Source: a virus (taxonomy: Duplodnaviria > Heunggongvirae > Uroviricota > Caudoviricetes). From it: DNA of 35,920 bases. Under the pieces are notes generated by a model, which did no database searches, was not told the DNA's origin, and saw nothing but the letters and a program-made list of their open reading frames with translations. The stretch lies in IMG/VR virus record IMGVR_UViG_649989946_000004. One strand, written 5' to 3'. A program made the translations under genes and the position numbers. Shown in pieces: positions 6,908-28,838 of the stretch. Numbering within the stretch: the first letter of the stretch is position 1; each line of letters begins with the position of its first letter.

Positions 6908-6919
6908 ATTTCCATTTCA

Positions 6920-9529: not shown

Positions 9530-9777
9530 CGGTTTTCATCGGTAACACACCATGTAATCTAGCAGTCAGCTTAGAAATAGGAGCGGCAGTTAAAGATTTT
9601 TCAGTTAGTAGAAAATTACTGTTATTGCAGGGATCTAATCACCGGAGAGTCGTTCCATTTGTCTTATGATTACCTGAAGTCCGTTAGTTCGTTGGTAATC
9701 ACCGTTTTTGTTAGAGAAGTAAGCATCGCTGACAAAATATTCTCAACGATGCCTGCTTTATTGCTACTACAAATTAA

Positions 9778-11278
9778 TTAAATTGCATCTGCAAACTCTG
9801 GGGTTTTTCGCTCAGGTATAATTGATGAGTTGCTGTTGTCACTTTTTTTATTTTCATGATTACGAATAGCCAATGACTCATTAAAGTCTTTTGCGACTGC
9901 TGTCTCAATAAATTCAATTTCTGAATCAGAGTGTTTTTTAACAGCTTCTTTGATCTCATCCAGAGTAACATAGAAAAACTCTTTTCTACGATTTACAAGA
10001 TTGACTCTCTTTTTATCGAAGACATCATGTAGTTTTTTTCTAATGATGGAGCGTCCTCCGAATAAATCATGGCATGTACATCAAAAATAAAAGGAACAGA
10101 TGCATCACCGAGCTCATTTACACGGTCTTGCGGATCAAGACGTCGTGTCATGCCTATTTTATAAACATTCTCCCCAAAAGAACCTATGTTCGAAATAATA
10201 TAAACATGACCTTGTTTGGTTTGTTGTGCCATGGATAATGCTCTTTGATGCTTTGATTCAGCCTGCGACAAACTCTGTTCTAGTTCGGCAATGCGATTTT
10301 CGAGGCGCTGCTTCATGTCACCAGTAACTTTTTCCATTTCCTTTCTTGCAGCTTCAATTGCTTTTTTATAACGGCGCTCTTCTGCCTCTGCGTCTTGCAT
10401 GGCCTTTTCTATTTCTCGTTGTGCACGCTCCTCCTCTCTCATTTGTGCCCTTATTTCTGCCTGTTCTTCTTTTTCTTTCTGTTTTTGCTCACGATATTCA
10501 TGGGTAAGCCACAATTCCTCAAGTTTTTTATTGAGGTATTTAGTGTTTATATATATATGATTTTGCTCGTTTAGTTTATTTATGGCCTCAAATGCCTTTG
10601 TGATGCGTTCTTCCATTTTAGTGATGTTTTTCCACGTGCAATTGCTAATTGCAGCATCACATTCATTATTAAATGCTCTAGTAGTTAGCCTGATATTTCT
10701 GTCTGTCATTTTTTTACCCTCTGCTCGAGAGCCTTCAACAGTCCATTGGGTTGTACAATATACTGCGCCAGAGTGGGTTTTATCCCGCAGCATTAATTTC
10801 TGTTCATCCCTGATGGATTTTATTTTGTTTTTAAATTGCTCTGAATCTTCAAAATTAAAATGAGGTTCGTAAAATCCTAGTTCGGCTAGCTCAACATCTT
10901 CTGAATAAATAGAAATTTGCCTTACTAGTTTATCATATATTTCTTTCTTCTCTTTATAAGTTCTTCTTAGCTCTTGGATTTGTTTATTGATACCATCCAT
11001 TTTTTCAATGGTGTTTGTTAGTTCATTATTGGCATTTTCTTTTACTTTTAGGGATTCTTCTTTTATTATGGAGCATTCTTGCTCTGTTTTCTCAATAAGC
11101 TTCTTACATTCTTCTTCTACATTAAAATAATCTGCAAAGCGAGATTTGTATTCTTCATTTTTTTGATTGCTATCACTTAATTCTAATTGTATTTTTTGAT
11201 GCGTTTGATTGCAGCTATATAAAGAACAAGAACAACCAATAAAAATATGATTGCAAGTAATAGAGGAGTTTGAGTCAT
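9778..11278 (-). CDS. Membrane-anchored coiled-coil protein with C-terminal T5orf172/GIY-YIG-like domain (DUF4041-like architecture); reading frame interrupted twice at homopolymer runs
   Basis: ATG at 11278 encodes a TM helix (MTQTPLLLAIIFLLVVLVLYIAAIKRIKK) that stops unless the T6 run 11192-11197 is read as 7; main 435-aa ORF (9993-11300) has a long coiled coil and GHVYIISNIGSFGENVYKIGMTRRLDPQDRVNELGDASVPFIFDVHAMI; the domain continues in the -1 frame (LHDVFDKKRVNLVNRRKEFFYVTLDEIKEAVKK...) to a stop at 9778 if the T7 run 10043-10049 is read as 8. Confidence 0.65.
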
Positions 11279-11587
11279 TCGTGCTATTCCTTACGGACAA
11301 TTTAAGACGTTTTGTATTAAATCCTGTTCAATGTGTATGCGGGTGATTGCTACCGCTTACAATCTTCATAATTATCAGTTAGATAGACTCGCTAGTAAAT
11401 AATTTCATTTTTTGCAATATTCTTATTGAATATTTCAATTTATGAAATGAACTCTTTATCCTTTCAAGGCGAAAGGTTTCTTCTTCGGAAATATTTGCTC
11501 TCGTGTGACGTATAAAGACCTTTGATTTTCAAAAATCAGTAGGGAATAATATAGTTACTGTCGGCCTGAACACCCGGTGGTGGGGTT

Positions 11588-11692
11588 GCGCTAAACGGGG
11601 ACGTTTATGCGCACACACAATCCAAACTCTCATCTCCATTCACAGATGCAGAAATGCACCTACGATTTTTTACATTCGGTGTTTTACTTCGA
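11588..11692. repeat. Direct repeat copy A (~105 bp, ~90% identical to copy B)
   Basis: GCGCTAAACGGGGACGTTTATGCGCACA...TTCACAGATGCAGAAATGCACCT... recurs at 13521-13625. Confidence 0.8.
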
Positions 11693-11737
11693 CAGCCAGA
11701 ATTGGGAGTCTCTATTCGTCTGGCGGCTAAAGGTGAT

Positions 11738-11827
11738 ATGGAAATCGTTATGTTTTGGCCTGAGGTAGTTGTAACTGTTGTAGCAGCTATGGCTGTGATC
11801 ATCATGGTGTCCATTTACTGGGGTTGA
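11738..11827 (+). CDS. Small hydrophobic peptide ORF (29 aa), speculative
   Basis: AAGGTGA SD then ATG; MEIVMFWPEVVVTVVAAMAVIIMVSIYWG is a single predicted TM segment; lies just after repeat copy A. Confidence 0.25.
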   Translation: MEIVMFWPEVVVTVVAAMAVIIMVSIYWG

Positions 11828-11913
11828 CGACATGATTTATCCGGCGCTATATTCTGTGCGTTGCCGCAAAATCGGCACACGGGATTGGCGTCCCGGGATA
11901 CTACTCAACGCAT

Positions 11914-11934
11914 ACCGCGTTAAGCGGTTTTTTT
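11914..11934 (+). terminator. Possible weak rho-independent terminator
   Basis: Short stem ACCGC-GTTAA-GCGGT followed by T7. Confidence 0.3.
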
Positions 11935-12090
11935 GTGCGCTAAGCACGGCTATGCCCAAATTATGGTGGGCTGTGTGAGGGCTTCTTCGGAAGCGCCGGG
12001 TTTGAGTAGCCGGTTACGCCAACCTTACACAGTTCACCACCAGTCGATTGGCGTCGTTGGTGGTGATGGTTAACCTGATGAGGTGATACT

Positions 12091-12699
12091 ATGACTACTC
12101 AATTAGCATTCCACAAAACGACGTTTACCCCGATTTGCCACAATAACAGAATTTGGCTTACTGCCACTGAAGTTGGTTTAGCACTGGAATATGCGGACGA
12201 TAAAGCAGTTCAGCGCATTTACTCTCGGCACTCAGATGAATTCACAGATATGATGACAAGGGTGGTCAAAGTGACCACCCCTCGTGGAATGCAGGAGTCT
12301 CGAGTATTTAGCCTTCGCGGAGCCCATTTGATCGCCATGTTTGCTCGTACTCCTGTGGCCAAAGAATTCCGCCGCTGGGTTCTGGATATTCTCGATCGAG
12401 AAGTTCAACAATCCCCAATCACAAAACAATTCACTGATAACGAACTTTGCACACTCGCCTGGTTATGGCGAGCAAGTGATACGATGTTAACCGCCTGCCA
12501 GAACGTTACGCCCCTTCTTCAGGTCGCAGAGCATCGCGAAGCAGGTAGATTCACTTCAATCGAACAAGAATATCCTCGGATACTCAACAGGGCGCGAGAA
12601 ATCCTTGCCAGAGAAACGGCGCATGTAAAATTCCAACCGTGGCAGGATGATAAGTGGAGTCGTGTGTTACCATATTTCCGTCAGAATCTGTTGCAATAA
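12091..12699 (+). CDS. BRO-N / antirepressor-like protein
   Basis: 202-aa ORF with GAGGTGA SD; N-terminal pattern (LAFHKTTF...IWLTATEVGLALEY ... RVFSLRGAHLIAMFARTPVAKEFRRWVLDIL) fits the Bro-N / P22-antirepressor N-terminal fold. Confidence 0.6.
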   Translation: MTTQLAFHKTTFTPICHNNRIWLTATEVGLALEYADDKAVQRIYSRHSDEFTDMMTRVVKVTTPRGMQESRVFSLRGAHLIAMFARTPVAKEFRRWVLDILDREVQQSPITKQFTDNELCTLAWLWRASDTMLTACQNVTPLLQVAEHREAGRFTSIEQEYPRILNRAREILARETAHVKFQPWQDDKWSRVLPYFRQNLLQ

Positions 12700-12933
12700 A
12701 GTCACTAGTTAGAAATACTGCCAGCATTCTGCGATGACGGAAGTGCTGGCATTTTTTTGGTAATGTGCGAGTCCATTTCATAAAATACGGGTACTGGAAC
12801 TGGACGATATAATCTAAAAGATACCATTATCAGTAGCATTAAAATCGCTATGTGCCGATACGGATATAAATTATATTGATTGTTCACATACCTTATTGGA
12901 TATTACTGAGGGGTGTTTATATAAGGTGTAACG

Positions 12934-13443
12934 ATGATGTGGAACTTTGACAGTGCCGACTTAAGTGCAATAGCAGCAGGCATTTCTGCGTTTGGCACAT
13001 TAGCCGCAGCGGGGTCGGCGCTTGCAAGTTGGTGCACGTCAAAAAAAGCGCTGCAGCTACAAAATAGAGTTTACCTTTATGAGTCTTTAAAGGCTTGCGC
13101 TGAGAGAGCCAATTCATCAGCTAAAGATAAGCGCGGATCTGAATGGAGCGTTAATGATGCAGCGGATATCATCAGGTGCCTAGTACGGGCGATGGAGCTC
13201 ATCAAGCAGGATAGCCAGCAGAAAGAAGGTAATCAGGCATTAATGTTGAAACAGTACTTTGTTAATCTGCTAATAATGGAACTGTACGAGGAAGTTCATA
13301 ACGGTGATGCGGCTGATTCTGTTTTTAAAAGTACGGAACCTACACAAGTACTTGATAACTTATGGAGCAAATGGCAGGAGGCTATAGCTTTTTTTGATAT
13401 TTGGAATTACCCAGTTGCGACTGAGGAAGACTTGGCAGACTAA
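12934..13443 (+). CDS. Hypothetical membrane protein (N-terminal TM helix, cytoplasmic alpha-helical domain)
   Basis: 169-aa ORF with AGGTG SD, preceded by a ~230-bp AT-rich promoter-like region; hydrophobic segment LSAIAAGISAFGTLAAAGSALASW; no family recognised. Confidence 0.6.
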   Translation: MMWNFDSADLSAIAAGISAFGTLAAAGSALASWCTSKKALQLQNRVYLYESLKACAERANSSAKDKRGSEWSVNDAADIIRCLVRAMELIKQDSQQKEGNQALMLKQYFVNLLIMELYEEVHNGDAADSVFKSTEPTQVLDNLWSKWQEAIAFFDIWNYPVATEEDLAD

Positions 13444-13520
13444 TTTTCAGCACATTTGATTTCCAATAATCAACCAGCCATAATCATGCCATTGGAGCTT
13501 GAACAACTCCGGTGACTTCT

Positions 13521-13625
13521 GCGCTAAACGGGGACGTTTATGCGCACATACAATCCAAACTCTCTTCTCCCTTCACAGATGCAGAGATGCACCTGCGATT
13601 TTTTGCATCCAGCGTTTGACCTCTG
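13521..13625. repeat. Direct repeat copy B, immediately upstream of ninB
   Basis: See copy A; ends ~12 bp before the ninB GTG start. Confidence 0.8.
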
Positions 13626-13637
13626 CGGAGGTGAAGC

Positions 13638-14093
13638 GTGAACCTCCCACAAGACGGCATCAAATTGCATCGTGGTAACTTCACCGCTATCGGCCAGCAG
13701 ATCCAGCCTTATCTGGAGGAAGGCAAATGCTTTCGCATGGTGCTTAAACCGTGGCGTGAGAAACGCAGTCTTTCCCAGAATGCACTCAGCCACATGTGGT
13801 ACAGCGAAATCAGTGAATACCTCATCAGCAGGGGTAAAACGTTCGCCACTCCAGCTTGGGTAAAAGATGCTCTCAAACACACATATCTCGGTTATGAAAC
13901 CAAAGACCTGGTTGATGTCGTAACCGGTGAGATCACCACTATCCAGTCGTTACGCCATACCTCCGATCTTGATACCGGAGAGATGTATATCTTCCTGTGT
14001 AAGGTTGAAGCCTGGGCGGTGAATATTGGCTGCCACCTGACTATTCCGCAGAGCTGCGAGTTCCAGCTGCTCCGCGACAAGCAGGAGGCGTAA
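13638..14093 (+). CDS. ninB: NinB-family recombination protein
   Basis: 151-aa ORF, GTG start with GGAGG SD; motif [21 protein letters not shown] matches the NinB RSLDQN region. Confidence 0.75.
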
Positions 14094-14260
14094 TGGCTAC
14101 ACCGCTTATTCGTGTCATGAACGGACACATCTACAGAGTATCAAATCGTCGTAAGCGTAAGCCTGAGCTGAAGCCATCCGAAATACCAACTCTGCTCGGA
14201 TATACCGCTAGCCTGGTTGATAAAAAATGGTTGCGACTGGCAGCAAGGAGGAATCATGGC
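14093..14260 (+). CDS. ninE: NinE
   Basis: 55-aa [59 protein letters not shown] matches DLP12 NinE as recalled; TAATG overlap with ninB; below the ORF-track size cut-off. Confidence 0.75.
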
Positions 14261-14546
14261 TGATTTGAGAAAAGCAGCGCGTGGTCGGGAATGCCAGGTA
14301 AGAATCCCTGGCGTATGTAATGGCAATTCTGAAACGTCTGTACTGGCACATATCCGGCTGGCTGGATTGTGCGGTACCGGTATCAAACCGCCAGACCTGA
14401 TTGCCACCATTGCATGTTCTGCCTGCCACGACGAAATCGACCGCCGCACACATTTTGTCGATGCTGCATATGCAAAAGAATGCGCGCTGGAAGGTATGGC
14501 GAGAACACAGGTTATCTGGCTGAAAGAGGGGGTTATTAAGGCGTGA
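14256..14546 (+). CDS. ybcO: YbcO-like DUF1364 protein (putative nuclease)
   Basis: ATG with AGGAGG SD; [24 protein letters not shown]...[11 protein letters not shown] matches DLP12 YbcO as recalled. Confidence 0.8.
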
Positions 14547-14905
14547 ATACCTACAGTATCACATTACCCTGGCCTCCGAGCAATAATCGCTATTACCGCC
14601 ATAATCGCGGGCGCACGCACGTCAGTGCAGAGGGGCAGGCATACCGCGATAACGTCGCCCGAATCATTAAAAACGCAATGCTGGATATCGGCCTGGCTAT
14701 GCCTGTGAAAATCCGCATTGAGTGCCACATGCCGGATCGCCGTCGCCGTGACCTGGATAATCTGCAAAAAGCCGCTTTTGACGCACTCACTAAAGCAGGT
14801 TTCTGGCTGGATGATGCTCAGGTCGTTGATTACCGCGTTGTGAAGATGCCTGTTACCAAAGGTGGGAGGCTGGAACTGATCATCACCGAACTGGGGGATG
14901 AATGA
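14543..14905 (+). CDS. rusA: RusA Holliday-junction resolvase
   Basis: 120-aa [40 protein letters not shown]... matches DLP12 RusA. Confidence 0.9.
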
Positions 14906-15042
14906 TGTGTGAGTCATATATGGCAGAACTCCTTCGCCACCGCTGGGGGCGTCTGCGCTTATATCGTTTCCCCGGTTATGTTTTGACCGATTACCGAATA
15001 CTGAAGAATTACGCCAAAACACTGACAGGAGCAGGAGTATGA
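14902..15042 (+). CDS. ylcG: YlcG small protein
   Basis: 46-aa [49 protein letters not shown] overlapping the rusA stop; matches DLP12 YlcG as recalled. Confidence 0.7.
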
Positions 15043-15127
15043 AGTCAGAGATAACAATCAACTAATACTGTTTTGTTGATTTTTGCTTGTAATTGGCGTT
15101 CTGGTCTGAGTTTTGTGGAGTAAGTTG

Positions 15128-15511
15128 ATGCGTGATATTCAGATGGTTCTTGAGCGTTGGGGAGCGTGGGCGGCTAATAATCATGAAGATGTGACCTGGT
15201 CGTCCATTGCCGCCGGTTTTAAGGGATTAATTCCTTCAAAAGTAAAATCTCGCCCACAATGTTGTGACGATGACGCGATGATCATTTGCGGGTGCATGGC
15301 CCGTCTGAAAAAGAACAACAGCGATTTGCACGATTTATTAGTAGATTATTATGTAGTCGGTATGACATTCATGTCACTGGCAGGTAAGCATTGCTGCTCT
15401 GATGGTTATATCGGGAAAAGGTTACAGAAGGCTGAGGGCATAATTGAAGGGATGTTAATGGCATTAGATATCCGGTTAGAGATGGATATCGTTGTTAATA
15501 ACTCTAATTAA
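15128..15511 (+). CDS. quuD: Late-gene antiterminator Q (QuuD-type)
   Basis: 127 aa from ATG at 15128; [31 protein letters not shown]...[16 protein letters not shown] matches DLP12 QuuD. Confidence 0.85.
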
Positions 15512-15530
15512 TATGCCAATTGTTTACTAA

Positions 15531-15562
15531 AAATTATTAAAAATGGGGCGTTGAGACGCCCC
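15531..15562 (-). terminator. Rho-independent terminator, minus strand (porin gene)
   Basis: Hairpin GGGGCG-TTGAGA-CGCCCC followed on the minus strand by ATTTTTAATAATTTTT. Confidence 0.45.
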
Positions 15563-15652
15563 CAAAAATAAAGGGTAATATATAACAGAAGGTTTATATA
15601 GTTAGAAGCAAGGTTGTGCTTCTAAAGGAAGTGGCTTGAGGGAGCCACTTAT

Positions 15653-15690
15653 ATGTTGGGGAGGCAACGCCTCCCGCAACATATCTTTTT
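15653..15690 (+). terminator. tR'-like terminator downstream of Q/PR'
   Basis: Plus-strand hairpin ATGTTGGGGAGGC-AAC-GCCTCCCGCAACAT followed by CTTTTT, ~140 nt downstream of Q; PR'/qut expected in 15512-15650. Confidence 0.5.
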
Positions 15691-15700
15691 CGTAATCAGA

Positions 15701-16783
15701 TTAGAACTGGTAAACCATACCTACAGCAACGATATCATCGGTAGCAACGCCAGATGCTTTCGTGAAATCGCTCTTATCAATCAGGTTGATTTTGTAGTCA
15801 ACAAAAGTGGACATATTTTTGTTGAAGTAATAGGTTGCACCTACATCAATATATTCAACCAGGTCCTGATCACCCCAAGCACCCAAGTCTTTTCCTTTAG
15901 ATTGCAGGTAAGCAACGGACGGACGCAGACCGAAGTCGAACTGATATTGTGCAACTACTTCGAAGTTTTGTGCTTTGTTGGCAATATGGTTATTACCAAA
16001 AACAGTCATGTTCTGGGTTTCAGAATAGGTAGTAGCCAGATAGATGTTGTTCGCATCATATTTCAGACCAGCTGCCCATACTTCAGCATTTTGACCAGAT
16101 GCATTCAGGCTGTTGTTACCGTAGATAACCTGATTATTAGTGCGGTCAGATTTAGCATAGGTTGCACCTACGCCGAAACCTTCATACTCATAAGTAGTGG
16201 AGAAACCGAAACCATCACCATTAGCTTGAGTTACGTCAGTGCGGTCATTTTTACCCTGATACTGAGCAGCAAAGTTCAGACCATCAACCAGACCAAAGAA
16301 GTCGTTGTTACGATAAGTTGCAACACCTGTGGTGCGACCAGTCATGAATACATCTGTTTGGGTCCAGGTATCGCCACCGAATTCTGGCAGAACGTCGGTC
16401 CATGCACCAATATCGTATGCTACACCGTAGTTACGGCCATAATCGATGGAGCCGTAGTCACCGAATTTCAGGCCAGCGAAGGCAAGACGGGTTTTATCTT
16501 TGGAGGAACCTTGAGATTCAGCGCGGTTGCCTTTGAATTCATATTCCCACTGACCGAAACCAGTCAGTTGATCGTTGATTTGGGTTTCACCTTTGAAGCC
16601 AAGACGGGCATAAGTAGTATCACCATCATCTGCATCATTAGAGGAGAAGTAGTGCTTAGCATTAACTTTCCCGTACAGATCCAGCTTGTTACTGTCTTTA
16701 TTATAAATTTCAGCTGCCTGAGCAGACATCGCCATCAGTACTGATGCAGCTACAGCAGAAATTGCCACTGTTAATTTTTTCAT
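15701..16783 (-). CDS. nmpC: General porin, OmpC/OmpF family (NmpC-like), apparently intact
   Basis: Signal peptide [23 protein letters not shown] then AEIYNKD... and C-terminal ...VGMVYQF typical of enterobacterial porins; located between Q and the lysis cassette as in DLP12. Confidence 0.9.
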
Positions 16784-17210
16784 CGTGAGCCCTTTTTTTG
16801 AACTATTATTAAAAAATGATGTCACTGCGCGATAAATATTCATCTAATCAATGTGATTATTTCAAGATGTAAGTTTTGGTTTCTCGTTTGATTTGTGAAG
16901 TAGATCTCTATTTTTATCTGAACTTTTTTCTATCGAATCCTATTCATGGCTCTTGGCTGAATAAAAATAAATCTATTAGCCAATTTATATTAACGGCTGT
17001 CATTTATAAGTGCTCTATAATTTGAAGGTTCAATTTAAACCGGCTAAAAATAACGCTGGAAATTATTTGTTGGTTATTTGTTGATATTTGCTTATGTATT
17101 TGTAGTGGTGTTTTCAATACTCGGTAGCATTCTCGCAAATATCATTTAGTGGTTTACGTACGTAAAAAATTGGTTATGCTGTTAAGAGTGGTTACTTCGT
17201 CACACAGCTT

Positions 17211-17243
17211 AAACCCGCCGTCGAGCGGGTTTTTCCATTTTTT
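17211..17243 (+). terminator. Rho-independent terminator upstream of the lysis cassette
   Basis: AAACCCGC-CGTCGA-GCGGGTTT followed by TTCCATTTTTT. Confidence 0.5.
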
Positions 17244-17355
17244 GAGTCTCGATATTAGCTGATAACCCAATACCTGAGTTATTCACTGACTCCGAGTCTG
17301 TTACGTTTCGTAGTATTCCCTCAATTTACACCCGCTTTGTCTGCGAGGTGGGGTT

Positions 17356-17571
17356 ATGAAATCCATGGATAAGTTAACAACGGGTGTCGCCTATGGCACC
17401 TCAGCAGGTAGTGCCGGGTACTGGTTTTTACAGCTGCTAGATAAAGTCACGCCCTCACAGTGGGCGGCAATTGGAGTGCTGGGTAGCCTGGTATTTGGCC
17501 TGCTGACGTACCTGACAAACCTTTATTTCAAGATTAAAGAAGATAAGCGCAAGGCTGCGAGAGGTGGATAA
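17356..17571 (+). CDS. essD: Holin (EssD-type) with dual-start motif
   Basis: 71-aa [17 protein letters not shown]... with Met1-Lys2-Ser3-Met4 and TM segments; matches DLP12 EssD. Confidence 0.85.
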
Positions 17572-18068
17572 TGCCTCCATCATTACGAAAAGCTGTTGCT
17601 GCTGCTATTGGTGGCGGGGCTATTGCTATAGCATCTGTGTTAATCACTGGCCCAAGTGGTAACGATGGTCTGGAAGGTGTGAGACATAATCCTTACAAAG
17701 ACATAGTTGGTGTATGGACTGTATGTTACGGGCATACAGGAAAAGACATCATTCCCGGTAAAACGTATACCGAAGCAGAGTGCAAAGCCCTCCTGAATAA
17801 AGACCTTGCCACGGTCGCCAGACAAATTAACCCGTACATCAAAGTCGATATACCGGAAACAACGCGCGGCGCTCTTTACTCGTTCGTCTACAACGTGGGT
17901 GCTGGCAATTTCAGAACATCGACGCTTCTTCGCAAAATAAACCAGGGCGATATCAAAGGCGCATGTGATCAGCTACGTCGCTGGACATACGCTGGAGGTA
18001 AGCAATGGAAAGGACTGATGACTCGTCGTGAGATTGAGCGTGAAGTCTGTTTGTGGGGGCAGCAATGA
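17571..18068 (+). CDS. rrrD: SAR endolysin (phage lysozyme, RrrD/P21 R-type)
   Basis: 165-aa ORF with N-terminal signal-anchor-release segment ([21 protein letters not shown]) and lysozyme core; TAATG-coupled to holin. Confidence 0.85.
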
Positions 18069-18263
18069 GCAGAGTAACCGCGATTATCTCCGCTCTGATT
18101 ATCTGCATCATCGTCTGCCTGTTATGGGCTGTTAATCATTACCGTGATAACGCCATCGCCTACAAAGAGCAGCGCGACAAAGCCGCATCCACTATCGCTG
18201 ATATGCAGAAGCGTCAACGTGATGTAGCAGAACTCGACGCCAGATACACAAAGGAGCTTGCTG

Positions 18264-18430
18264 ATGCTAACGCGACTATCGAAAGTCTTCGTGCTGATGT
18301 TTCTGCTGGGCGTAAGTGGCTGCGCGTCAAAGCTGTCTGTCCAGACATGCATAAAATCACCGCCGCCTCCGGCGTGGATGATGGCACCAGCCCCAGACTT
18401 ACTGACACCGCTCAACGGGATTATTTCACC
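18264..18430 (+). pseudogene. rzoD: Rz1 outer-membrane lipoprotein spanin, embedded in Rz (+1 frame), also cut by IS2; remainder 19767-19800
   Basis: AAGGAG SD then [23 protein letters not shown]...[24 protein letters not shown] (lipobox, proline-rich), interrupted at 18430. Confidence 0.8.
18426..18430. repeat. IS2 target-site duplication, left copy (TCACC)
   Basis: TCACC directly flanks both IS2 ends (18426-18430 and 19762-19766). Confidence 0.8.
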
Positions 18431-18441
18431 TGGATTTGCCC

Positions 18442-19347
18442 CTATATTTCCAGACATCTGTTATCACTTAACCCATTACAAGCCCGCTGCCGCAGATATT
18501 CCCGTGGCGAGCGATAACCCAGCGCACTATGCGGATGCCATTCGTTATAATGCTCGAACGCCTCTGCAAGGTTCTTTGCTGCCGTTAACCCGTCTGGTTT
18601 GGGCATGATACTGATGTAGTCACGCTTTATCGTTTTCACGAAGCTCTCTGCTATTCCGTTACTCTCCGGACTCCGCACCGCCGTGTTCTTCGGTTCAAGT
18701 CCCAACATCCGGGCGAACTGGCGTGTTTCATTAGCCCGGTAGCATGAACCATTATCCGTCAGCCACTCCACTGGAGACGACGGAAGATCGTTGCCGAAGC
18801 GGCGTTCCACCGCTCCCAGCATGACGTCCTGTACTGTTTCACTGTTGAAGCCGCCGGTAGTGACCGCCCAGTGCAGTGCCTCACGATCACAGCAGTCCAG
18901 CGCGAACGTGACACGCAGTCTCTCTCCGTTATCACAGCAGAACTCGAACCCGTCAGAGCACCATCGCTGATTGCTTTCTTTCACGGCCACTCTGCCTGTA
19001 TGTGCCCGTTTCGATGGCGGTACAGCAGGTTTTCGCTCAAGCAACAGCGCATTCTGGCGCATGATCCGGTAAACACGTTTGGCATTGATCGCAGGCATAC
19101 CATCAAGTTCTGCCTGTCTGCGAAGCAGCGCCCATACCCGACGATAACCATACGTGGGCAGCTCTCCGATAACATGGTGTATACGGAGAAGCACATCCGT
19201 ATCATCAGTGTGACGACTGCGGCGGCCATCCATCCAGTCATCGGTTCGTCTGAGAATGACGTGCAACTGCGCACGCGACACCCGGAGACAACGGCTGACT
19301 AAGCTTACTCCCCATCCCCGGGCAATAAGGGCGCGTGCGCTATCCAC
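18442..19347 (-). CDS. insD: IS2 transposase OrfB (InsD)
   Basis: 301-aa ORF with DDE-type integrase core; matches IS2 InsD. Confidence 0.9.
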
Positions 19348-19670
19348 TTTTTTGCCCGTCCATATTCAACGGCTTCTTTGAGGAGTTCATTTTCCATCGT
19401 TTTCTTGCCGAGCAGGCGCTGGAGTTCTTTAATCTGCTTCATGGCGGCAGCAAGTTCAGAGGCAGGAACAACCTGTTCTCCGGCGGCGACAGCAGTAAGA
19501 CTTCCTTCCTGGTATTGCTTACGCCAGAGAAATAACTGGCTGGCTGCTACACCATGTTGCCGGGCAACGAGGGAGACCGTCATCCCCGGTTCAAAGCTCT
19601 GCTGAACAATTGCGATCTTTTCCTGTGTGGTACGCCGTCTGCGTTTCTCCGGCCCTAAGACATCAATCAT
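19305..19670 (-). CDS. insC: IS2 OrfA (InsC)
   Basis: 121 aa from ATG at 19670 ([25 protein letters not shown]...), HTH regulator; overlaps insD for the usual OrfAB frameshift fusion. Confidence 0.9.
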
Positions 19671-19761
19671 CTGTTCTCCAATGACTAGTCTAAAAACTAG
19701 TATTAAGACTATCACTTATTTAAGTGATATTGGTTGTCTGGAGATTCAGGGGGCCAGTCTA

Positions 19762-19766
19762 TCACC
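19762..19766. repeat. IS2 target-site duplication, right copy (TCACC)
   Basis: See left copy. Confidence 0.8.
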
Positions 19767-20224
19767 CTTAGAAAGCGGATTGAAACCAGTGATAAAATGA
19801 TCCGAGGCTTGCAGCAATACATTCGCACGCAGTGTGTAAGATGAGCAATCTTTGCTAATTAGCCATGAAATAGATAAATATCAGGCCAACGATGATTAGT
19901 GCCAGGCATCCTAATTGGTCAGAATGGCTGGCATTTGATCGTCTTGCTCTTCTTGCAGTTGATTGGACAGCCCTCTGTCCTCGACTTCCTCTTGGCATTC
20001 CTCTCATTTATTCTCTCTCAACATTGATATTGAACTGACAGATGATAATTATTTCATGAAAGTGGTATCTCGTTGATTTGATTACGCTACATAGTCGCCG
20101 GATTTTCGCATTTATCGGCATCGGGCGGTGCAAAATTGGCATAATCGAAACGTAGAGTTTTTGGCTGACAACAGCATTAGCGGTCACCCGGAGAGTGTTG
20201 TGAACATGTTAATTACATGACGCT

Positions 20225-20545
20225 TTAGATGCATCGACATTTGATGATGCTTGTCAGACCTGTCATTTTCTTTGCTTCATTTTCAACATTGAGGAAGTTG
20301 GTTGAGCATATTTTTTGATAATCTCCAGTTGTGAATCCTGTTTTATCGATCTTGCGTTTCAAGGGATTAATCGTTTTGCAAGATGCTCTATGGATTCTGG
20401 TAAAGCGTTCGTCAGATTTATTACCTTTACCTCTGGTTCGCTTCAATGCATTGACAACATATCCGTCTGGATTATCGCCAAGCCAATTACGATAGTCTGA
20501 TTCACTCTCAGTCTGAAGGTCACTTCTGAATACCTTTATGGACAT
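20225..20545 (-). CDS. Hypothetical basic protein at the bor-equivalent locus (between spanins and cos)
   Basis: 106 aa from ATG at 20545 preceded by AGGAG; MSIKVFRSDLQTESESDYRNWLGDNPDGYVVNALKRTRGKGNKSDERFTRIHRASC...; AT-rich gene with own AT-rich upstream region; no signal peptide; family not recognised. Confidence 0.6.
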   Translation of the reverse strand: MSIKVFRSDLQTESESDYRNWLGDNPDGYVVNALKRTRGKGNKSDERFTRIHRASCKTINPLKRKIDKTGFTTGDYQKICSTNFLNVENEAKKMTGLTSIIKCRCI

Positions 20546-20679
20546 GAAGATACTCCTGTGCATTTATGGTACGAAGAAATAGCAAAAGTATTTTTACCGT
20601 AAATTGCGAATCTACAAAAGCAAAACAATGCGTAATATCAGAGTGAATATTCTGCCTTTAATGTGGGTCCTTCTGATGA

Positions 20680-20720
20680 CCTGAGCTCTCACGGGGCGGG
20701 AGCGTCGCGGAAAAAGGCTA
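20680..20720. promoter_or_regulatory. Candidate cos site (cosN-like GC-rich core)
   Basis: GGGGCGGGAGCGTCGCGG ~170 bp upstream of the small terminase gene resembles the lambda cosN core GGGCGGCGACCTCGCGG. Confidence 0.3.
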
Positions 20721-20879
20721 GTTTTTGCATTTTTATCGGCCACCATCATCTTTGCATCTTATTGATTATTAATGGTTATTTGTTTTTTGTATGTCGAATT
20801 GAGCGGTTTTTGTTCGACATCGAACGCGTTTTCTTAAAGTTGTTCGCACGATGCATGTTTAAAGCTCTCCGGAGGAAAT

Positions 20880-21371
20880 ATGGATCATGAGTTGAAAAAC
20901 TTGGTGCTGAATATTAATCAACTGGCGGCTTTATCTGGTCTGCACCGCCAGACTGTCGTGGCAAGACTGAAAAACATTCGTCCCGCTGGTGGACATGACA
21001 AACTCAAGCTATATCGGTTGACCGATATTCTGACTGAATTTATGGGGTTACCACCGCCGGTTGCTGAGGGCGAAATGGATCCACATGAACGCAAAGCCTG
21101 GTATCAGTCTGAACGTGAGCGTCTTAAGTTCGAACAGGAAACGGCACAACTCATTCCGGCCAGTGATGTCAGACGGGAGTTTGCCATCTGGGCAAAAGCG
21201 GTCGTGCAGGTGCTGGAGACATTACCGGATATTCTGGAACGTGACTGCGGCCTGCAGCCTGCCGATGTGAGCCGTGTTCAGTCCATTATTGATGATCTGC
21301 GCGATCAGATAGCCCTGCGGGTGACCGAAGCAGGTGCGGATGATGAGGAGGAATTACAGCAGGAGGAGTAA
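20880..21371 (+). CDS. Terminase small subunit
   Basis: 163-aa ORF with GGAGG SD, N-terminal HTH-like segment, acidic C-terminus; immediately precedes and overlaps the large terminase. Confidence 0.8.
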   Translation: MDHELKNLVLNINQLAALSGLHRQTVVARLKNIRPAGGHDKLKLYRLTDILTEFMGLPPPVAEGEMDPHERKAWYQSERERLKFEQETAQLIPASDVRREFAIWAKAVVQVLETLPDILERDCGLQPADVSRVQSIIDDLRDQIALRVTEAGADDEEELQQEE

Positions 21372-23428
21372 TGCTGAATCAGGAAACCGCAAAGGCAGCA
21401 CGAACCGATTCAGGTTATATCCTTCGCGCACCGAGACGAATGCTGGTTGCTGATGCCGTTGCTCAGTATATGCGGGTGCCCATGGGGGCCGGGAATTCAG
21501 TCCCGTGGGATCCGCTGGTGGCACCGTATGTTATTGAGCCGATGAACTGCCTGGCCTCGCGTGAATACGACGCAGTGATATTTGTTGGCCCGGCACGAAC
21601 TGGCAAGACTATCGGCCTGATTGACGGCTGGGTGATTTACAATGTGATTTGCGATCCTGCTGATATGCTGATCATTCAGATGACGGAGGAAAAAGCCCGC
21701 GAACACTCCAAAAAACGACTTGCCAGAACGTTTCGCGTCAGCCCGGAAGTGGTCAGTCGCCTGAGTCCGAACAAAAATGACAACAACGTTTATGACAGAA
21801 CATTCCTTGCTGGCAACTACCTGAAAATCGGCTGGCCGTCAGTCAATATCATGTCCTCATCAGATTATAAATGCGTGGCGCTGACGGATTATGACCGTTT
21901 TCCGGAAGATATTGATGGCGAGGGGGATGCCTTCTCTCTTGCCTCAAAACGTACCACCACATTTATGTCCAGTGGTATGACGCTGGTGGAGAGTTCCCCC
22001 GGCAGGGATGTGAAGGATGTGAAATGGCGACGGACTTCACCGCATGAGGCTCCACCAACCACGGGGATACTGTCGCTCTATAACCGTGGCGATCGCCGTC
22101 GCTGGTACTGGCCCTGTCCACACTGTGGTGAGTATTTTCAGCCCTGCGGCGATGTGGTTGCTGGTTTCCGTGATATTGCCGATCCCGTGCTGGCAAGTGA
22201 GGCGGCTTATATTCAGTGTCCTTCCTGTTCAGGACGGATTATGCCTGAACAAAAACGTGAGCTGAACGGACGTGGGGTCTGGTTGCGGGATGGTGAATCC
22301 ATCAATGCGGATGGCAGTCGTTATGGTGATCCCCGACGCTCACGTATTGCGTCATTCTGGATGGAGGGTCCGGCAGCTGCTTACCAGACACTCTCGCAAC
22401 TCGTTTACAAACTGCTTACTGCAGAACAGGAATACGAGACAACCGGAAGTGAAGAAACACTCAAGACGGTTATCAATACCGACTGGGGATTACCTTATCT
22501 TCCCCGTGCCAGCATGGAGCAACGAAAAAGTGAACTGCTTGAGCAGCGGGCAGAGCCAGTTCCTTCCCGCAGTGTGCCGGATGGCGTTAATTTCCTGGTG
22601 GCGACAGTTGATGTGCAGGCGGGACGTCATCGCCGTTTTGTGGTTCAGGTAACGGGCTATGGCAGCCGTGGCGAACGCTGGATTATTGATCGTTACAACA
22701 TCACGCAGTCATTGCGCGGTGACAGCGACGGGGAGAGCCAGCGAATTGATCCGGCCAGCTATCCGGAAGACTGGGATGTCCTGCTGACGGATGTTTTTCA
22801 TAAAAGCTGGCCGCTGGCCTCCGATCCTTCTCAACAAATGCGACTGATGGCAATGGCGGTGGACTCCGGCGGTGAAGACGGGGTCACTGATAATGCCTAT
22901 AAATTCTGGCGTCGTTGCCGTCGTGATGGCCTTGGTAAACGTATTTACCTGTTTAAGGGCGACAGCATCCGGCGCGCAAAACTGATCACCCGTACATTCC
23001 CTGATAACACCGGACGAACGGGCCGACGGGCGCAGGCCGCAGGTGATGTGCCGCTCTGGCTTCTTCAGACGGATGCACTGAAAGACCGGGTGAATAACGC
23101 GTTATGGCGTGACTCGCCAGGTCCCGGCTATGTGCATTTCCCTGACTGGCTGGGGAGCTGGTTTTACGACGAACTGACGTATGAAGAGCGGAGCAGTGAC
23201 GGGAAATGGAGTAAGCCGGGTCGCGGTGCCAACGAAGCTTTTGACCTGATGGTGTATGCCGAGGCTCTGGTCATTCTGCATGGATACGAAAAGATCCGCT
23301 GGCCGGATGCACCGGAGTGGGCGAGCCGGGAAACCTGGCTGGAGTGTGTCCAGGACAGTACCGAACCGTCATCCTCACCGGAACCGGTATCCACGCCTGT
23401 TAAAAAACAAAACGGAAGAAAACAGTAA
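21371..23428 (+). CDS. Terminase large subunit (GpA-like)
   Basis: 685-aa ORF; Walker-A-like FVGPARTGKT, nuclease domain, zinc-finger-like CPHCGEYF...CPSC as in lambda gpA-family terminases. Confidence 0.9.
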   Translation: MLNQETAKAARTDSGYILRAPRRMLVADAVAQYMRVPMGAGNSVPWDPLVAPYVIEPMNCLASREYDAVIFVGPARTGKTIGLIDGWVIYNVICDPADMLIIQMTEEKAREHSKKRLARTFRVSPEVVSRLSPNKNDNNVYDRTFLAGNYLKIGWPSVNIMSSSDYKCVALTDYDRFPEDIDGEGDAFSLASKRTTTFMSSGMTLVESSPGRDVKDVKWRRTSPHEAPPTTGILSLYNRGDRRRWYWPCPHCGEYFQPCGDVVAGFRDIADPVLASEAAYIQCPSCSGRIMPEQKRELNGRGVWLRDGESINADGSRYGDPRRSRIASFWMEGPAAAYQTLSQLVYKLLTAEQEYETTGSEETLKTVINTDWGLPYLPRASMEQRKSELLEQRAEPVPSRSVPDGVNFLVATVDVQAGRHRRFVVQVTGYGSRGERWIIDRYNITQSLRGDSDGESQRIDPASYPEDWDVLLTDVFHKSWPLASDPSQQMRLMAMAVDSGGEDGVTDNAYKFWRRCRRDGLGKRIYLFKGDSIRRAKLITRTFPDNTGRTGRRAQAAGDVPLWLLQTDALKDRVNNALWRDSPGPGYVHFPDWLGSWFYDELTYEERSSDGKWSKPGRGANEAFDLMVYAEALVILHGYEKIRWPDAPEWASRETWLECVQDSTEPSSSPEPVSTPVKKQNGRKQ

Positions 23429-23468
23429 CTGATGATGTTAACCCCTGGCTGACTTCCGGAGGATGGTT

Positions 23469-23681
23469 ATGAACCAGAATGATATCGAAGCCATGATTCA
23501 GCGTTATATGGAAGCTGAAATGGCGGTGCTGGACGGAAAATCCGTCACCTTTAATGGTCAGCAGATGACCATGGAAAACTTATCTGAGATCCGGCAGGGA
23601 CGGCAGGAGTGGGAGCGCCGCCTTGCGGCTCTGATTACACGACGACGGGGGCATCCCGGGTACCGGCTGGCGAGGTTCTGA
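23469..23681 (+). CDS. Head-tail joining protein W-like
   Basis: ~70-aa ORF after GGAGG; C-terminus ...ITRRRGHPGYRLARF resembles lambda gpW (...QRRRGPAGFYV). Confidence 0.7.
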   Translation: MNQNDIEAMIQRYMEAEMAVLDGKSVTFNGQQMTMENLSEIRQGRQEWERRLAALITRRRGHPGYRLARF

Positions 23682-25189
23682 TGGCAATTCTTGATGATGT
23701 GATTGGCGTTTTTTCACCTGGATGGAAAGCGGCAAGGCTGCGTTCCCGTGCGGTGATCCAGGCTTATGAAGCCGTAAAAACGACGCGGACACACAAAGCC
23801 CGACGGGAGAACCGAACTGCCGACCAGCTAAGCCAGTACGGGGCCGTGTCGTTACGTGAGCAGGCCCGTTACCTTGATAACAACCACGATCTGGTTATTG
23901 GTGTATTTGACAAGCTGGAAGAACGGGTGGTGGGGAAAAACGGGATTATTGTCGAGCCACATCCGGTATTACGCAATGGGGCCATTGCCCGTGATCTGGC
24001 AGCGGAGATTCGCACCCGATGGAGTGAATGGTCTGTCAGCCCGGAAGTCACCGGGCAGTTTACCCGTCCGATGCTGGAACGTCTGATGCTGCGTACCTGG
24101 CTGCGCGATGGTGAGGTGTTTGCCCAGATGGTTTCCGGGCGCATAAACAGCCTGACGCCTTCTGCCGGTGTTCATTTCTGGCTGGAGGCGCTCGAGCCAG
24201 ACTTTATTCCCATGACCAGTGATGAGAGCAACAGGCTGAATCAGGGCGTGTTTGTTGATGACTGGGGGCGTCCCGAAAAATATCTGGTGTATAAAAGCCG
24301 TCCCGTATCCGGGCGGCAGATGGAAACCAAAGAAGTGGATGCAGAGCGAATGCTGCATCTTAAATTTGTTCGCCGTCTGCACCAGATGCGCGGGACGTCT
24401 TTGTTGTCCGGTGTGCTGATCCGCCTCAGTGCCCTGAAAGATTATGAAGATTATGAGCTGACTGCAGCAAGGATCGCCGCTGCTCTGGGGATGTACATCC
24501 GCAAAGGCGACGGGCAGAGCTATGAACCGGATGGTAATGGCAGCAAGGATAAGGAACGCGAGCTTACCATTCAGCCAGGCATTATTTACGACGATCTGAA
24601 ACCCGGCGAAGAAATCGGAATGGTGAAGTCGGATCGCCCCAATCCTAACCTTGAAACTTTTCGTAATGGTCAGTTACGTGCCGTGGCGGCGGGCAGTCGT
24701 CTGAGTTTTTCCAGTACAGCGCGCAACTATAACGGCACTTACAGCGCCCAGCGTCAGGAGCTGGTTGAATCCACTGATGGCTACCTGATCCTGCAGGACT
24801 GGTTTATTGGTGCTGTCACCCGCCCGATGTATCGTGCCTGGCTGAAACAGGCTGTGGCATCCGGTGTTATCAGGCTACCCCGCGATCTTGACCGTTCTTC
24901 ACTGTATACCGCGGTGTATTCCGGACCGGTGATGCCGTGGATTGACCCTGTTAAGGAGGCTGAGGCCTGGAAAATCCAGATTCGTGGTGGAGCGGCGACA
25001 GAATCAGACTGGGTACGTGCTGGTGGTCGTAATCCGGATGATGTCAAACGTCGGCGCAAGGCCGAAATTGATGAAAACCGCAAACTGGATCTGGTATTTG
25101 ATACCGATCCGGCCAGTGATAAAGGAGGCAGCAGTGCCGCAACGAAACGACAGGAGCCGCAGCACACCGACGACCAGTCCGAAGAATAA
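23681..25189 (+). CDS. Portal protein (lambda B family)
   Basis: ~502 aa from ATG at 23681 (TGATG overlap with W); size, position and acidic C-terminal tail typical of portal. Confidence 0.85.
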   Translation: MAILDDVIGVFSPGWKAARLRSRAVIQAYEAVKTTRTHKARRENRTADQLSQYGAVSLREQARYLDNNHDLVIGVFDKLEERVVGKNGIIVEPHPVLRNGAIARDLAAEIRTRWSEWSVSPEVTGQFTRPMLERLMLRTWLRDGEVFAQMVSGRINSLTPSAGVHFWLEALEPDFIPMTSDESNRLNQGVFVDDWGRPEKYLVYKSRPVSGRQMETKEVDAERMLHLKFVRRLHQMRGTSLLSGVLIRLSALKDYEDYELTAARIAAALGMYIRKGDGQSYEPDGNGSKDKERELTIQPGIIYDDLKPGEEIGMVKSDRPNPNLETFRNGQLRAVAAGSRLSFSSTARNYNGTYSAQRQELVESTDGYLILQDWFIGAVTRPMYRAWLKQAVASGVIRLPRDLDRSSLYTAVYSGPVMPWIDPVKEAEAWKIQIRGGAATESDWVRAGGRNPDDVKRRRKAEIDENRKLDLVFDTDPASDKGGSSAATKRQEPQHTDDQSEE

Positions 25190-25202
25190 TTCCTGGTTCA
25201 GG

Positions 25203-27161
25203 ATGCAGGCTGGTCACCAGAGTGACGCGGATATTTATATTTATGACGAGATTGGTTTCTGGGGTGTTACAGCGAAGCAGTTTATCAGTGATCTGAATGC
25301 ACTGGGCGATATCACCCACATTAATCTCCATATTAATTCACCGGGTGGCGATGTCTTTGAAGGCATCGCCATTTTTAATGCGCTGAAAACACATGGTGCG
25401 TCCATTACCGTTTATGTCGACGGTGTGGCGGCGTCAATGGCGTCGGTCATTGCGATGGTGGGAAACCCGGTCATTATGCCGGAAAACACCTTCATGATGA
25501 TTCATAAACCATTTGGCTTTACGGGCGGTGATGCGGAGGACATGCGCACCTATGCCGACCTGCTCGATAAAGTTGAGGCGGTTCTGTTACCCGCTTATGC
25601 ACAGAAAACCGGGAAAACCACCGATGAAATTGCTGTCATGCTGGCGGATGAGACCTGGATGTCCGGTGCCGAATGTCTGGCACATGGATTTGCTGATCAG
25701 GTATCGCCAGCCGTTAAGGCAATGGCATGTATTCAGTCAAAACGTACAGAGGAATTTAAAAAGATGCCGGAATCCATTCGAAACATGATTACTCCGCCAC
25801 GCAACAGTGCTCCACGCGTACAGGATGATGAACCTGCAGCCTCCCGGACGCCAGTGCAGGCAGCAGCACCCGTGGTGGATGAAAACAGTATCCGTGCGCA
25901 GGTACTGGCAGAGCAAAAAGCGCGTGTAAACGGTATTAATGATCTGTTTGCCATGTTTGGCGGGCGTTATCAGACGCTGCAGGCCCAGTGTCTTGCCGAT
26001 CCTGAATGTTCGCTGGAGCAGGCCCGCGAAAAGTTGTTGAACGAGATGGGGCGCGAGTCCACGCCATCCAATAAAAATACCCCGGCTCATATTTATGCCG
26101 GTAACGGTAATTTTGTGGGGGACGGGATCCGCCAGGCGCTGATGGCGCGTGCCGGATTTGAAAAAACCGAACGTGATAATGTCTACAACGGGATGACCCT
26201 GCGTGAATATGCCCGTATGTCACTGACTGAACGGGGTATTGGGGTTTCCGGTTATAACCCGATGCAGATGGTCGGTGCGGCGTTCACACACAGTACGTCT
26301 GACTTCGGTAATATTCTGCTGGATGTTGCGAACAAAGCCATTCTGCAGGGCTGGGAAGATGCCCCTGAAACCTATGAACAGTGGACGCGGAAAGGTCAGT
26401 TGTCTGATTTTAAAATTGCCCATCGCGTGGGTATGGGGGGCTTCAGTGCTCTGCGTCAGGTGCGTGAAGGGGCGGAATATAAATACGTCACCACCGGAGA
26501 TAAACAGGCCACTATTGCACTGGCGACCTATGGCGAGCTGTTCAGTATCACCCGTCAGGCCATTATCAATGATGATCTGAATATGCTGACCGATGTCCCG
26601 ATGAAGCTGGGCCGTGCGGCGAAATCCACTATTGCCGATCTGGTTTATGCCATTCTGACGTCTAACCCGAAAATCTCCACAGATAATGTAAGTCTGTTCG
26701 ATAAAGCGAAACATGCAAACGTACTGGAGGGCGCTGCAATGGACGTGGCATCGCTGGATAAAGCCCGCCAGTTGATGCGTGTTCAGAAAGAGGGGGAGCG
26801 TCATCTGAATATTCGTCCTGCGTTCGTACTGGTACCGACGGCGATGGAGTCTGTTGCTAACCAGGTCATTCGCTCCTCAAGTGTCAAGGGGGCTGACATT
26901 AACGCCGGTATTATTAACCCGGTGAAAGATTTTGCGACCGTTATTGCAGAGCCTCGTCTTGATGATAACAGCCAGACCACCTTCTACCTGGCTGCGTCAA
27001 AAGGCTCCGATACGATTGAAGTGGCTTATCTCAACGGTGTGGATACGCCATATATTGATCAGATGGAGGGCTTCAGTGTGGATGGCGTGACAACGAAAGT
27101 GCGTATTGACGCCGGTGTCGCGCCAGTTGATCACCGCGGTCTGGTGAAATGTACGGCGTAA
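25203..27161 (+). CDS. Prohead protease (ClpP/S14-like) fused to major capsid protein (HK97 fold)
   Basis: 652 aa from ATG at 25203; N-terminal ClpP-like region (HINSPGGDVFEGIAIFNALK...AASMASVIAM), linker, then capsid-like C-terminal half; no separate capsid gene follows. Confidence 0.8.
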   Translation: MQAGHQSDADIYIYDEIGFWGVTAKQFISDLNALGDITHINLHINSPGGDVFEGIAIFNALKTHGASITVYVDGVAASMASVIAMVGNPVIMPENTFMMIHKPFGFTGGDAEDMRTYADLLDKVEAVLLPAYAQKTGKTTDEIAVMLADETWMSGAECLAHGFADQVSPAVKAMACIQSKRTEEFKKMPESIRNMITPPRNSAPRVQDDEPAASRTPVQAAAPVVDENSIRAQVLAEQKARVNGINDLFAMFGGRYQTLQAQCLADPECSLEQAREKLLNEMGRESTPSNKNTPAHIYAGNGNFVGDGIRQALMARAGFEKTERDNVYNGMTLREYARMSLTERGIGVSGYNPMQMVGAAFTHSTSDFGNILLDVANKAILQGWEDAPETYEQWTRKGQLSDFKIAHRVGMGGFSALRQVREGAEYKYVTTGDKQATIALATYGELFSITRQAIINDDLNMLTDVPMKLGRAAKSTIADLVYAILTSNPKISTDNVSLFDKAKHANVLEGAAMDVASLDKARQLMRVQKEGERHLNIRPAFVLVPTAMESVANQVIRSSSVKGADINAGIINPVKDFATVIAEPRLDDNSQTTFYLAASKGSDTIEVAYLNGVDTPYIDQMEGFSVDGVTTKVRIDAGVAPVDHRGLVKCTA

Positions 27162-27247
27162 ACATCGCAGACAACAACTCTGATGGCCCGTAAGGGCTTT
27201 TTTTGTACCTGAAATCAGCCCCTGAACGGGGCTGTGTGGAGACAGTT

Positions 27248-27571
27248 ATGGCAAAGAATTTTGTAGAAGAAGGAAAAACGGTGGCGATTGTTGCCAGTGC
27301 AGCCATCAGCAGCGGAGATCTGGTGCAGGTGGGTGATGTTTTTGCGGTGGCGCTGACCGATATTCCACAAGGTGAAACAGGCGACGGTATGACCGAAGGT
27401 GTGTTTATGCTGCCTAAGCTGAAAACGGATGACATGAAAACGGGTAAGAAGGTTTATCTGAAGTCCGGAAAAGTTCAGCTGACTAACAGCGGCTCTGAGC
27501 CGCTGGTCGGGGTTGTCTGGGCAGATGCCGGAACCAGTGCAGAAGAAGTGCCGGTAAAACTCAATGTCTGA
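27248..27571 (+). CDS. DUF2190-type head protein (putative decoration/cement protein)
   Basis: 107 aa from ATG after GGAGA; small Gly/Val-rich protein immediately after the capsid gene. Confidence 0.6.
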   Translation: MAKNFVEEGKTVAIVASAAISSGDLVQVGDVFAVALTDIPQGETGDGMTEGVFMLPKLKTDDMKTGKKVYLKSGKVQLTNSGSEPLVGVVWADAGTSAEEVPVKLNV

Positions 27572-27839
27572 TCCCTTTTCCCGGCTGGCAGCGCGTATGG
27601 ATGCTATCACGGTCAGAAAGATGGGAAAGACAGCCTCGATTAATGATGTCGATATGACCGTGATCCCGGGAGAAACACTGGCAGAGCTGAATGCCCTGTC
27701 CGGACCTGCGGTCTCTCTGGTGGTGTTTTCTTCGGGATACCGCCCACGGCGCGGGGATCGCGTTGTTTATGACGGACAACAATGGACGGTCACACGGCAT
27801 GAACGCTTTAACGGTAAGCCAATGATCTTTATTGAGTAA
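27564..27839 (+). CDS. Head-tail adaptor/completion protein (FII-position)
   Basis: 91-aa ORF overlapping the previous stop; position between head and tail genes. Confidence 0.5.
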   Translation: MSDPFSRLAARMDAITVRKMGKTASINDVDMTVIPGETLAELNALSGPAVSLVVFSSGYRPRRGDRVVYDGQQWTVTRHERFNGKPMIFIE

Positions 27840-27850
27840 AGAGGTGTGGG

Positions 27851-28827: not shown

Positions 28828-28838
28828 AGGAGGTGGCA

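Follow-up and report, generated by a model that had tools for sequence, protein, structure and literature searches.

The insertion sequence IS2 and the embedded two-component spanins of lambdoid phages are both already known. In phage lambda, spherical cells result when one or the other spanin subunit is defective (PMC5295617). Nonsense mutations anywhere in the periplasmic part of lambda Rz abolish lysis, R153X alone being tolerated, and the Q151X and C152X products are lysis-defective and fail to accumulate (PMC5295617). The extreme C-terminus of the second coiled coil of lambda Rz is the proposed Rz1-binding segment (PMC5295617). In lambda Rz1, W46X is the last of the nonsense alleles recovered with a defect, proteins truncated at positions 55-58 are still functional, as is a His-tagged Rz1, and the extreme C-terminus has been judged dispensable even though it includes R59, which forms a salt bridge with E150 of Rz (PMC5295617). 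As published, the features of IS2 include a 41-bp right inverted repeat (IRR), a 42-bp left inverted repeat (IRL), an A6G frameshift window with a role in joining orfA and orfB, and a two-step, circle-mediated transposition pathway (PMC3299598).

The window analyzed here, that is, the whole stretch of 35,920 nt, is a mosaic lambdoid prophage with all modules present, in which a complete copy of IS2 interrupts the Rz and Rz1 genes. We consider it very probable that a transposition-competent IS2 inserted recently into the Rz/Rz1 pair and that the resulting loss of Rz renders lysis by this prophage spanin-defective. The event is an ordinary mobile-element insertion and involves no new system.

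The int-xis module (positions 1-1600) shares 99.8% identity with modules of many E. coli genomes, the early, nin, Q and porin region (1522-17400) has 98.7% identity to the prophage at the DLP12 site of strain MFDS1019527, and positions 19762-35920 match the right arm of a prophage of E. coli NT1F31 (NZ_CP045190) at 99.8% identity. From approximately position 17800 on, the genes are of the NT1F31 type, with a DUF1441 small terminase, a large terminase, a portal, a protease-capsid fusion and tail genes. Compared with NT1F31, substitutions are unevenly spread: 49 out of 85 lie between 17301 and 17780, and nearly none follow until 21264. The mosaic joint is located at approximately 17300-17800; the match of the left arm, up to 17400, to the MFDS1019527 prophage together with the drop in substitutions places the recombination boundary inside the holin and endolysin genes.

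Other features of the prophage are observed outside the lysis genes. An OmpC/NmpC-like porin gene (15701-16783, minus strand) separates the Q antiterminator gene from the holin gene, as in DLP12-type prophages; compared with the MFDS1019527 copy it displays gaps of 5, 1 and 9 nt, which total 15 nt and so keep the overall frame. An open reading frame of 106-112 aa (20225-20563, minus strand) occupies the bor/iss position of other lambdoid prophages; no Pfam family matches it, and it is annotated as 'hypothetical protein' in NT1F31 (WP_000025003). A direct repeat of approximately 104 bp with approximately 89% identity (11587-11690 and 13520-13623), noticed through cross-matches to a locus used for comparison, brackets the region of a P22AR-domain gene. 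The accessory ('moron') genes of the early region encode a DUF4041-domain protein (9780-11300, minus strand) and a BamE-like lipoprotein (5300-5653, minus strand), both of which are also annotated in the MFDS1019527 relative.

The inserted element occupies positions 18431-19761 on the minus strand and is a complete IS2 of 1331 bp. It is identical over its full length (1331/1331) to features annotated as 'IS3-like element IS2 family transposase' in numerous complete genomes of E. coli, and the best match is at 99% identity or above in 2835 records. Taking the lengths of the terminal repeats from the published values (PMC3299598), the 41-bp IRR corresponds to positions 18431-18471, where the element terminates with ...CA-3' on the minus strand, and the 42-bp IRL to positions 19720-19761, starting with 5'-TAGACTGG on the same strand. 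The likeness between the two ends is poor in an ungapped alignment and good once a single gap is permitted; the gapped alignment reveals the shared conserved blocks CCCC, TCCAGACA and TATCACTTAA. Both coding sequences of the element lie on the minus strand, antiparallel to the late transcription of the phage. The orfA gene (insC; 19305-19670) encodes 121 aa and matches the model NF006928 'IS2 repressor TnpA' with 276.4 bits against a cut-off of 229, as well as PF01527. The orfB gene (insD; 18442-19347) is an open frame of 301 aa that matches NF006918 'IS2 transposase TnpB' with 727.6 bits against a cut-off of 597 and also PF13683; its integrase-core (DDE) catalytic domain is recognized by PF00665 (rve, E 1.1e-18). 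The predicted A6G programmed -1 frameshift window at the orfA/orfB junction is the AAAAAAG motif at 19347-19353 (minus strand), which is at IS2 position 409, counted from IRL, and lies in the overlap of the two genes.

Copies of the target-site duplication TCACC abut the element on both sides, at 18426-18430 and 19762-19766. The corresponding site is empty in E. coli NT1F31, where both flanks align to a single uninterrupted 147-codon gene annotated as 'lysis protein' with one copy of TCACC, one SNP relative to the flanks in the window, and no indel. Removal of IS2 and one copy of TCACC from the window yields a 444-nt Rz gene; other E. coli strains carry it uninterrupted and with 100% identity, in at least 12 of the complete genomes listed among the matches, and 41 records match this reconstructed gene at 99% identity or above. 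The distance between the Rz start codon (ATG at 18065) and IS2 is 366 nt, or 122 codons, and the insertion falls between codons 122 and 123 of 147. In the +1 frame, where Rz1 starts with ATG at 18264, the element lies inside codon 56 of 66. The full-length match, the perfect duplication and the empty-site allele, when combined, exclude a chance resemblance, and the insertion is a simple, clean transposition of IS2. It is also a recent one, since neither the element nor the split gene has diverged. A preliminary description of this DNA had proposed a full-length 1331-bp IS2 with a 5-bp TCACC duplication at codon 122 of Rz, within the stretch where Rz1 is embedded. Our comparisons bear this out: the element, on re-examination, is IS2, identical to annotated copies and above the cut-offs of IS2-specific models, the duplicated pentamer is present once in NT1F31, and both reading frames are interrupted. 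In the mechanism we propose, IS2 would have entered the embedded Rz/Rz1 genes by its normal circle-mediated pathway, duplicating TCACC.

The insertion divides each spanin gene into two parts, delimited here by translation. The 5' part of Rz, which encodes the i-spanin, comprises codons 1-122 (18065-18430, plus strand; also supported by PF03245 and by alignment with lambda Rz), and the 3' remnant, with codons 123-147 and the stop codon, is found at 19767-19844 (plus strand) by comparison with NT1F31, separated from its start. The 5' part of Rz1, which encodes the o-spanin, comprises codons 1-55 plus two of the three bases of codon 56 (18264-18430, plus strand; PF06085), while the last base of codon 56, codons 57-66 and the stop codon remain at 19767-19800 (plus strand). 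The reconstructed 147-aa Rz matches PF03245 'Bacteriophage Rz lysis protein' (E 5.8e-39, residues 34-145) and has a hydrophobic N-terminus, of 18 residues as read from the translation, in keeping with the transmembrane segment of an i-spanin. The reconstructed 66-aa Rz1 matches PF06085 'Lipoprotein Rz1 precursor' (E 8.4e-14) and carries the lipobox VSGC with Cys20; its gene covers nucleotides 200-400 of the reconstructed Rz gene in the +1 frame, and its start aligns as homologous to the start of lambda Rz1. Neither gene is intact in the window: IS2 interrupts Rz, of 147 codons, after codon 122 and Rz1, of 66 codons, inside codon 56, and the locus is a disrupted, rather than working, member of the embedded two-component spanin class. 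As encoded now, the chimeric Rz consists of 122 native and 28 IS-encoded residues (150 in total, stop codon at 18515-18517), and the chimeric Rz1 of 56 native and 58 IS-encoded residues (114 in total, stop codon at 18606-18608). No second Rz or Rz1, nor any other spanin candidate, was found elsewhere in the window by tblastn with the window and lambda Rz and Rz1 proteins or by a lipobox scan; besides the split locus, these returned one unrelated gene, that of the BamE-like lipoprotein at 5300-5653 (minus strand). As a separate observation, the Rz homology in the sequenced phages 4A7, Lambda_4C10, 1W, 3W, SfI and mEp460 ends at Rz nucleotides 387-388; this break corresponds to window position ~19787, 21 nt past the IS2 site, and the C-terminal end of Rz appears to be a separately exchanged module.

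Residue T122 of Rz in the window aligns with T129 of lambda Rz. The 25 C-terminal residues lost from Rz correspond to lambda residues 130-153, and include most of coiled-coil 2 (lambda 121-150) as well as E150, Q151 and C152. Because the cut falls at the equivalent of lambda residue 129, an Rz null is expected, and the split Rz is, by analogy with lambda, almost certainly a null allele. The distal coiled coil and the Cys-containing, Rz1-binding C-terminus are swapped for 28 unrelated residues. Upon induction, the holin and the endolysin would still kill the cell and degrade its wall; as both spanin subunits are needed, outer-membrane disruption would fail, leaving spherical unlysed cells at low shear or when the outer membrane is stabilized by divalent cations. 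Spanin loss has a conditional effect in shaken laboratory cultures without added Mg2+. Phage release from the lysogen is likely impaired at low shear or high Mg2+, and it is from the lambda genetics that we infer both the loss of Rz function and the lysis phenotype. Several points weigh against such a reading: the lambda results are transferred to a protein approximately 68% identical, Rz could be supplied in trans by other prophages in the host genome, and the homopolymer deletions described below, if real, would make a spanin defect irrelevant.

The preliminary description had gone further and regarded both spanins as inactivated, on the grounds that the C-terminal ends removed from Rz and Rz1 hold the periplasmic interaction region. 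For Rz this is consistent with the nonsense genetics of the lambda gene: the Rz1-binding end is lost, and a spanin-defective prophage would be the expected outcome. For Rz1 the proposal, as worded, is not supported. Its residues 1-56, numbered as in lambda Rz1, are kept in native form, and the 10 residues at the C-terminus are replaced. That the replaced end belongs to the interaction region holds in the narrow sense of the pairing between R59 of lambda Rz1 and E150 of Rz (PMC5295617), which does not by itself establish inactivation. Inactivity of both subunits, with Rz truncated and Rz1 deprived of its C-terminal interaction residues and burdened with a foreign tail, is quite possible, if short of probable. 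The Rz1 frame does continue from codon 56 into IS2 for 58 further codons, and the tail thus added is longer than the native part of the mature lipoprotein (~37 residues after Cys20), so that it could plausibly block the formation or stability of the complex. On the other hand, lambda Rz1 can be truncated to residue 55 without a lysis defect and functions with a His tag (PMC5295617), and the Rz1 of the window keeps the lipobox, Cys29 and the proline-rich stretch, that is, everything up to P56. By this comparison, Rz1, which retains all the residues (1-56) for which a need has been shown in lambda, may still work with a 58-residue IS-encoded tail added. Inactivity of Rz1 would depend on the effect of that tail; the spanin defect is attributed here to Rz alone, and we expect, by analogy with lambda, a phage-21-type lysis cassette that is spanin-null through Rz.

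The genes preceding Rz in the lysis cassette are intact. The holin gene (17356-17571, plus strand) encodes a 71-aa protein of the phage-21 S type (PF04971 'Bacteriophage P21 holin S', E 2e-35), and the endolysin gene (17571-18068, plus strand) a 165-aa lysozyme (PF00959 Phage_lysozyme, E 3.2e-48) with a Gly/Ala-rich N-terminus that resembles a signal-anchor-release segment, as judged by eye from the translation. The cassette, with an S21-like holin, a lysozyme-type endolysin and then Rz/Rz1, is probably of the phage-21 type, and the holin, endolysin and Rz genes are annotated in relatives as essD, rrrD and rzpD, respectively. Upstream of the cassette, a consensus scan predicts an intrinsic terminator (17211-17232, plus strand) with an 8-bp GC-rich stem and a T run; with the Q/porin region on one side and the holin gene on the other, it fits the lambdoid pR'-tR' layout and would function as tR'.

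IS2 is located in the late operon, upstream of all packaging and structural genes, the small terminase gene being at 20880-21371 (plus strand). This location raises an alternative in which the insertion acts mainly through transcriptional polarity on the terminase, head and tail genes; their expression would be lowered, and virion production, not only the last step of lysis, would be blocked. The element does separate Rz from the small terminase gene, both of which are on the plus strand with the structural genes, and strong polarity in operons has historically been associated with IS2. The late transcripts of lambdoid phages, however, are antiterminated by Q and extend through terminators, and the consensus scan detected no intrinsic terminator on the plus strand inside IS2. 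Q-modified RNA polymerase would therefore be predicted to read through the element to the packaging and structural genes, and we regard polarity as the main effect as unlikely.

A further alternative is that the prophage was dead already, and that IS2 entered a decaying cryptic prophage as a neutral event with no effect on lysis. Comparison with two independent references reveals 11 single-base deletions and no insertions in the window, all of them in homopolymer runs (positions 2069, 5363, 10032, 11191, 12751, 16792, 23408, 32162, 32470, 33847 and 34732). By comparison with close relatives, these deletions cause frameshifts at the C-terminus of the large terminase, at two places in the tape measure, in tail genes L and K, at two places in the DUF4041 gene and in the BamE-like gene, which is what a decayed prophage could look like. 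The deleted fraction, however, grows with run length: 3 of 3 runs of 8 nt, 3 of 10 runs of 7 nt and 4 of 38 runs of 6 nt are affected. Apart from the deletions, every module from int/xis to the tail retains 98-100% identity to relatives. The 11 deletions are most likely due to homopolymer compression in long reads rather than to decay; with indels that are one-directional and dependent on run length, decay was rejected as the leading view, and we hold a prophage dead before the insertion to be decidedly unlikely. If the deletions were real, the prophage would be dead regardless of IS2. The identification of IS2 is independent of the homopolymer errors, the Rz flanks being free of indels relative to NT1F31. 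There is also a practical warning in these data: small frameshifts elsewhere in the window should not be read as biology.

None of the collections searched contains the exact junction. Queries of 3.6 kb and of the 400-bp junction returned no place with at least 80% coverage in 5,426 complete E. coli genomes, and the junction is absent from the records of the phage collection. The exact 39-mer of the left junction has no match in the GTDB species representatives, nor has that of the right junction in the JGI metagenomes. Exact-protein look-ups gave no record of the chimeric Rz, from either of its two possible starts, or of the chimeric Rz1, and a literature search for IS2 in spanin genes retrieved nothing relevant. 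Insertions of IS2 close to this position are nevertheless found in other genomes. In E. coli CH4804 (NZ_CM166344.1), a related Rz gene contains an IS2-like insertion (extracted locus 2335-4108), and PGAP annotates it as a pseudogene of 'lysis system i-spanin subunit Rz' in two pieces. In STEC384 and STEC379, IS2 is located between rzpD and iss, just downstream of an intact rzpD (STEC384 extracted locus 4757-6477); STEC384, the best partial match, was considered as a carrier of the same insertion and rejected, as its element occupies a different site. IS2 copies seem to gather at this end of the lysis cassette. A stronger proposal, in which this end of lambdoid prophages is a recurrent IS2 target, with three placements, and Rz1 remains functional with its 58-residue tail, strikes us as very unlikely; if true, it would mean that the o-spanin tolerates large C-terminal extensions and that spanin-less prophages of the phage-21 type persist in nature. 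Finally, misplacement of a repeat by an error-prone long-read assembly, to which the systematic homopolymer errors and the absence of the junction from every collection searched might point, is extremely improbable and was rejected, as no misjoin would produce a flawless 5-bp direct repeat of the target at both ends of a full-length IS2 with both termini exact, nor let the flanks join exactly into the intact gene of the empty site.

A recent insertion of IS2 that almost certainly inactivates Rz bears mainly on annotation and on the biology of the strain. Rz, and nominally also Rz1, should be annotated as IS-disrupted pseudogenes. Two conclusions of the lambda spanin genetics can be put to a small natural test here: whether an Rz truncation also amounts to a null in a cassette of the phage-21 type, and whether Rz1 can do without its C-terminus or bear an extension of it. 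Insertion sequences in prophage genes are commonplace, and no new question is opened by this one.

Compared with IS2 of Escherichia coli (IS3 family, IS2 group), the element has the same sequence, imperfect 41/42-bp ends, orfA/orfB layout, A6G window and 5-bp duplication; the element itself displays no differences, and only its insertion site is particular to this prophage. The locus in CH4804 carries an element of the same family, in the same orientation to Rz, and its Rz is likewise split into two pseudogene pieces. Its IS, however, is 96.5% identical and its Rz allele 93.8% identical to those in the window, and its insertion lies approximately 100 nt further upstream, near Rz nucleotide 260, which makes it an independent event. 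With the cassette of phage 21 and DLP12 (the S21 pinholin and R21 endolysin; essD-rrrD-rzpD/rzoD in K-12) the prophage shares the holin family, the 165-aa lysozyme and the essD/rrrD/rzpD names, and, as in DLP12-like prophages, a porin gene is found upstream, between Q and S. It differs from DLP12 in that the Rz allele and everything downstream follow the NT1F31-type prophage, without bor and with different packaging and structural genes. As in lambda, Rz carries an N-terminal membrane anchor, its gene encloses the whole of Rz1 in the +1 frame, and the pair directly follows the endolysin gene; the lipobox Cys20, Cys29, the proline-rich stretch and the numbering up to P56 are also those of lambda Rz1. 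The intact allele encodes an Rz of 147 aa, compared with 153 aa in lambda, and an Rz1 of 66 aa, compared with 60 aa. Relative to lambda Rz, a gap of 7 residues falls in the first coiled coil and the C-terminus is longer by one residue, with an overall identity of approximately 68%, and, unlike in lambda, the gene pair is split by IS2.
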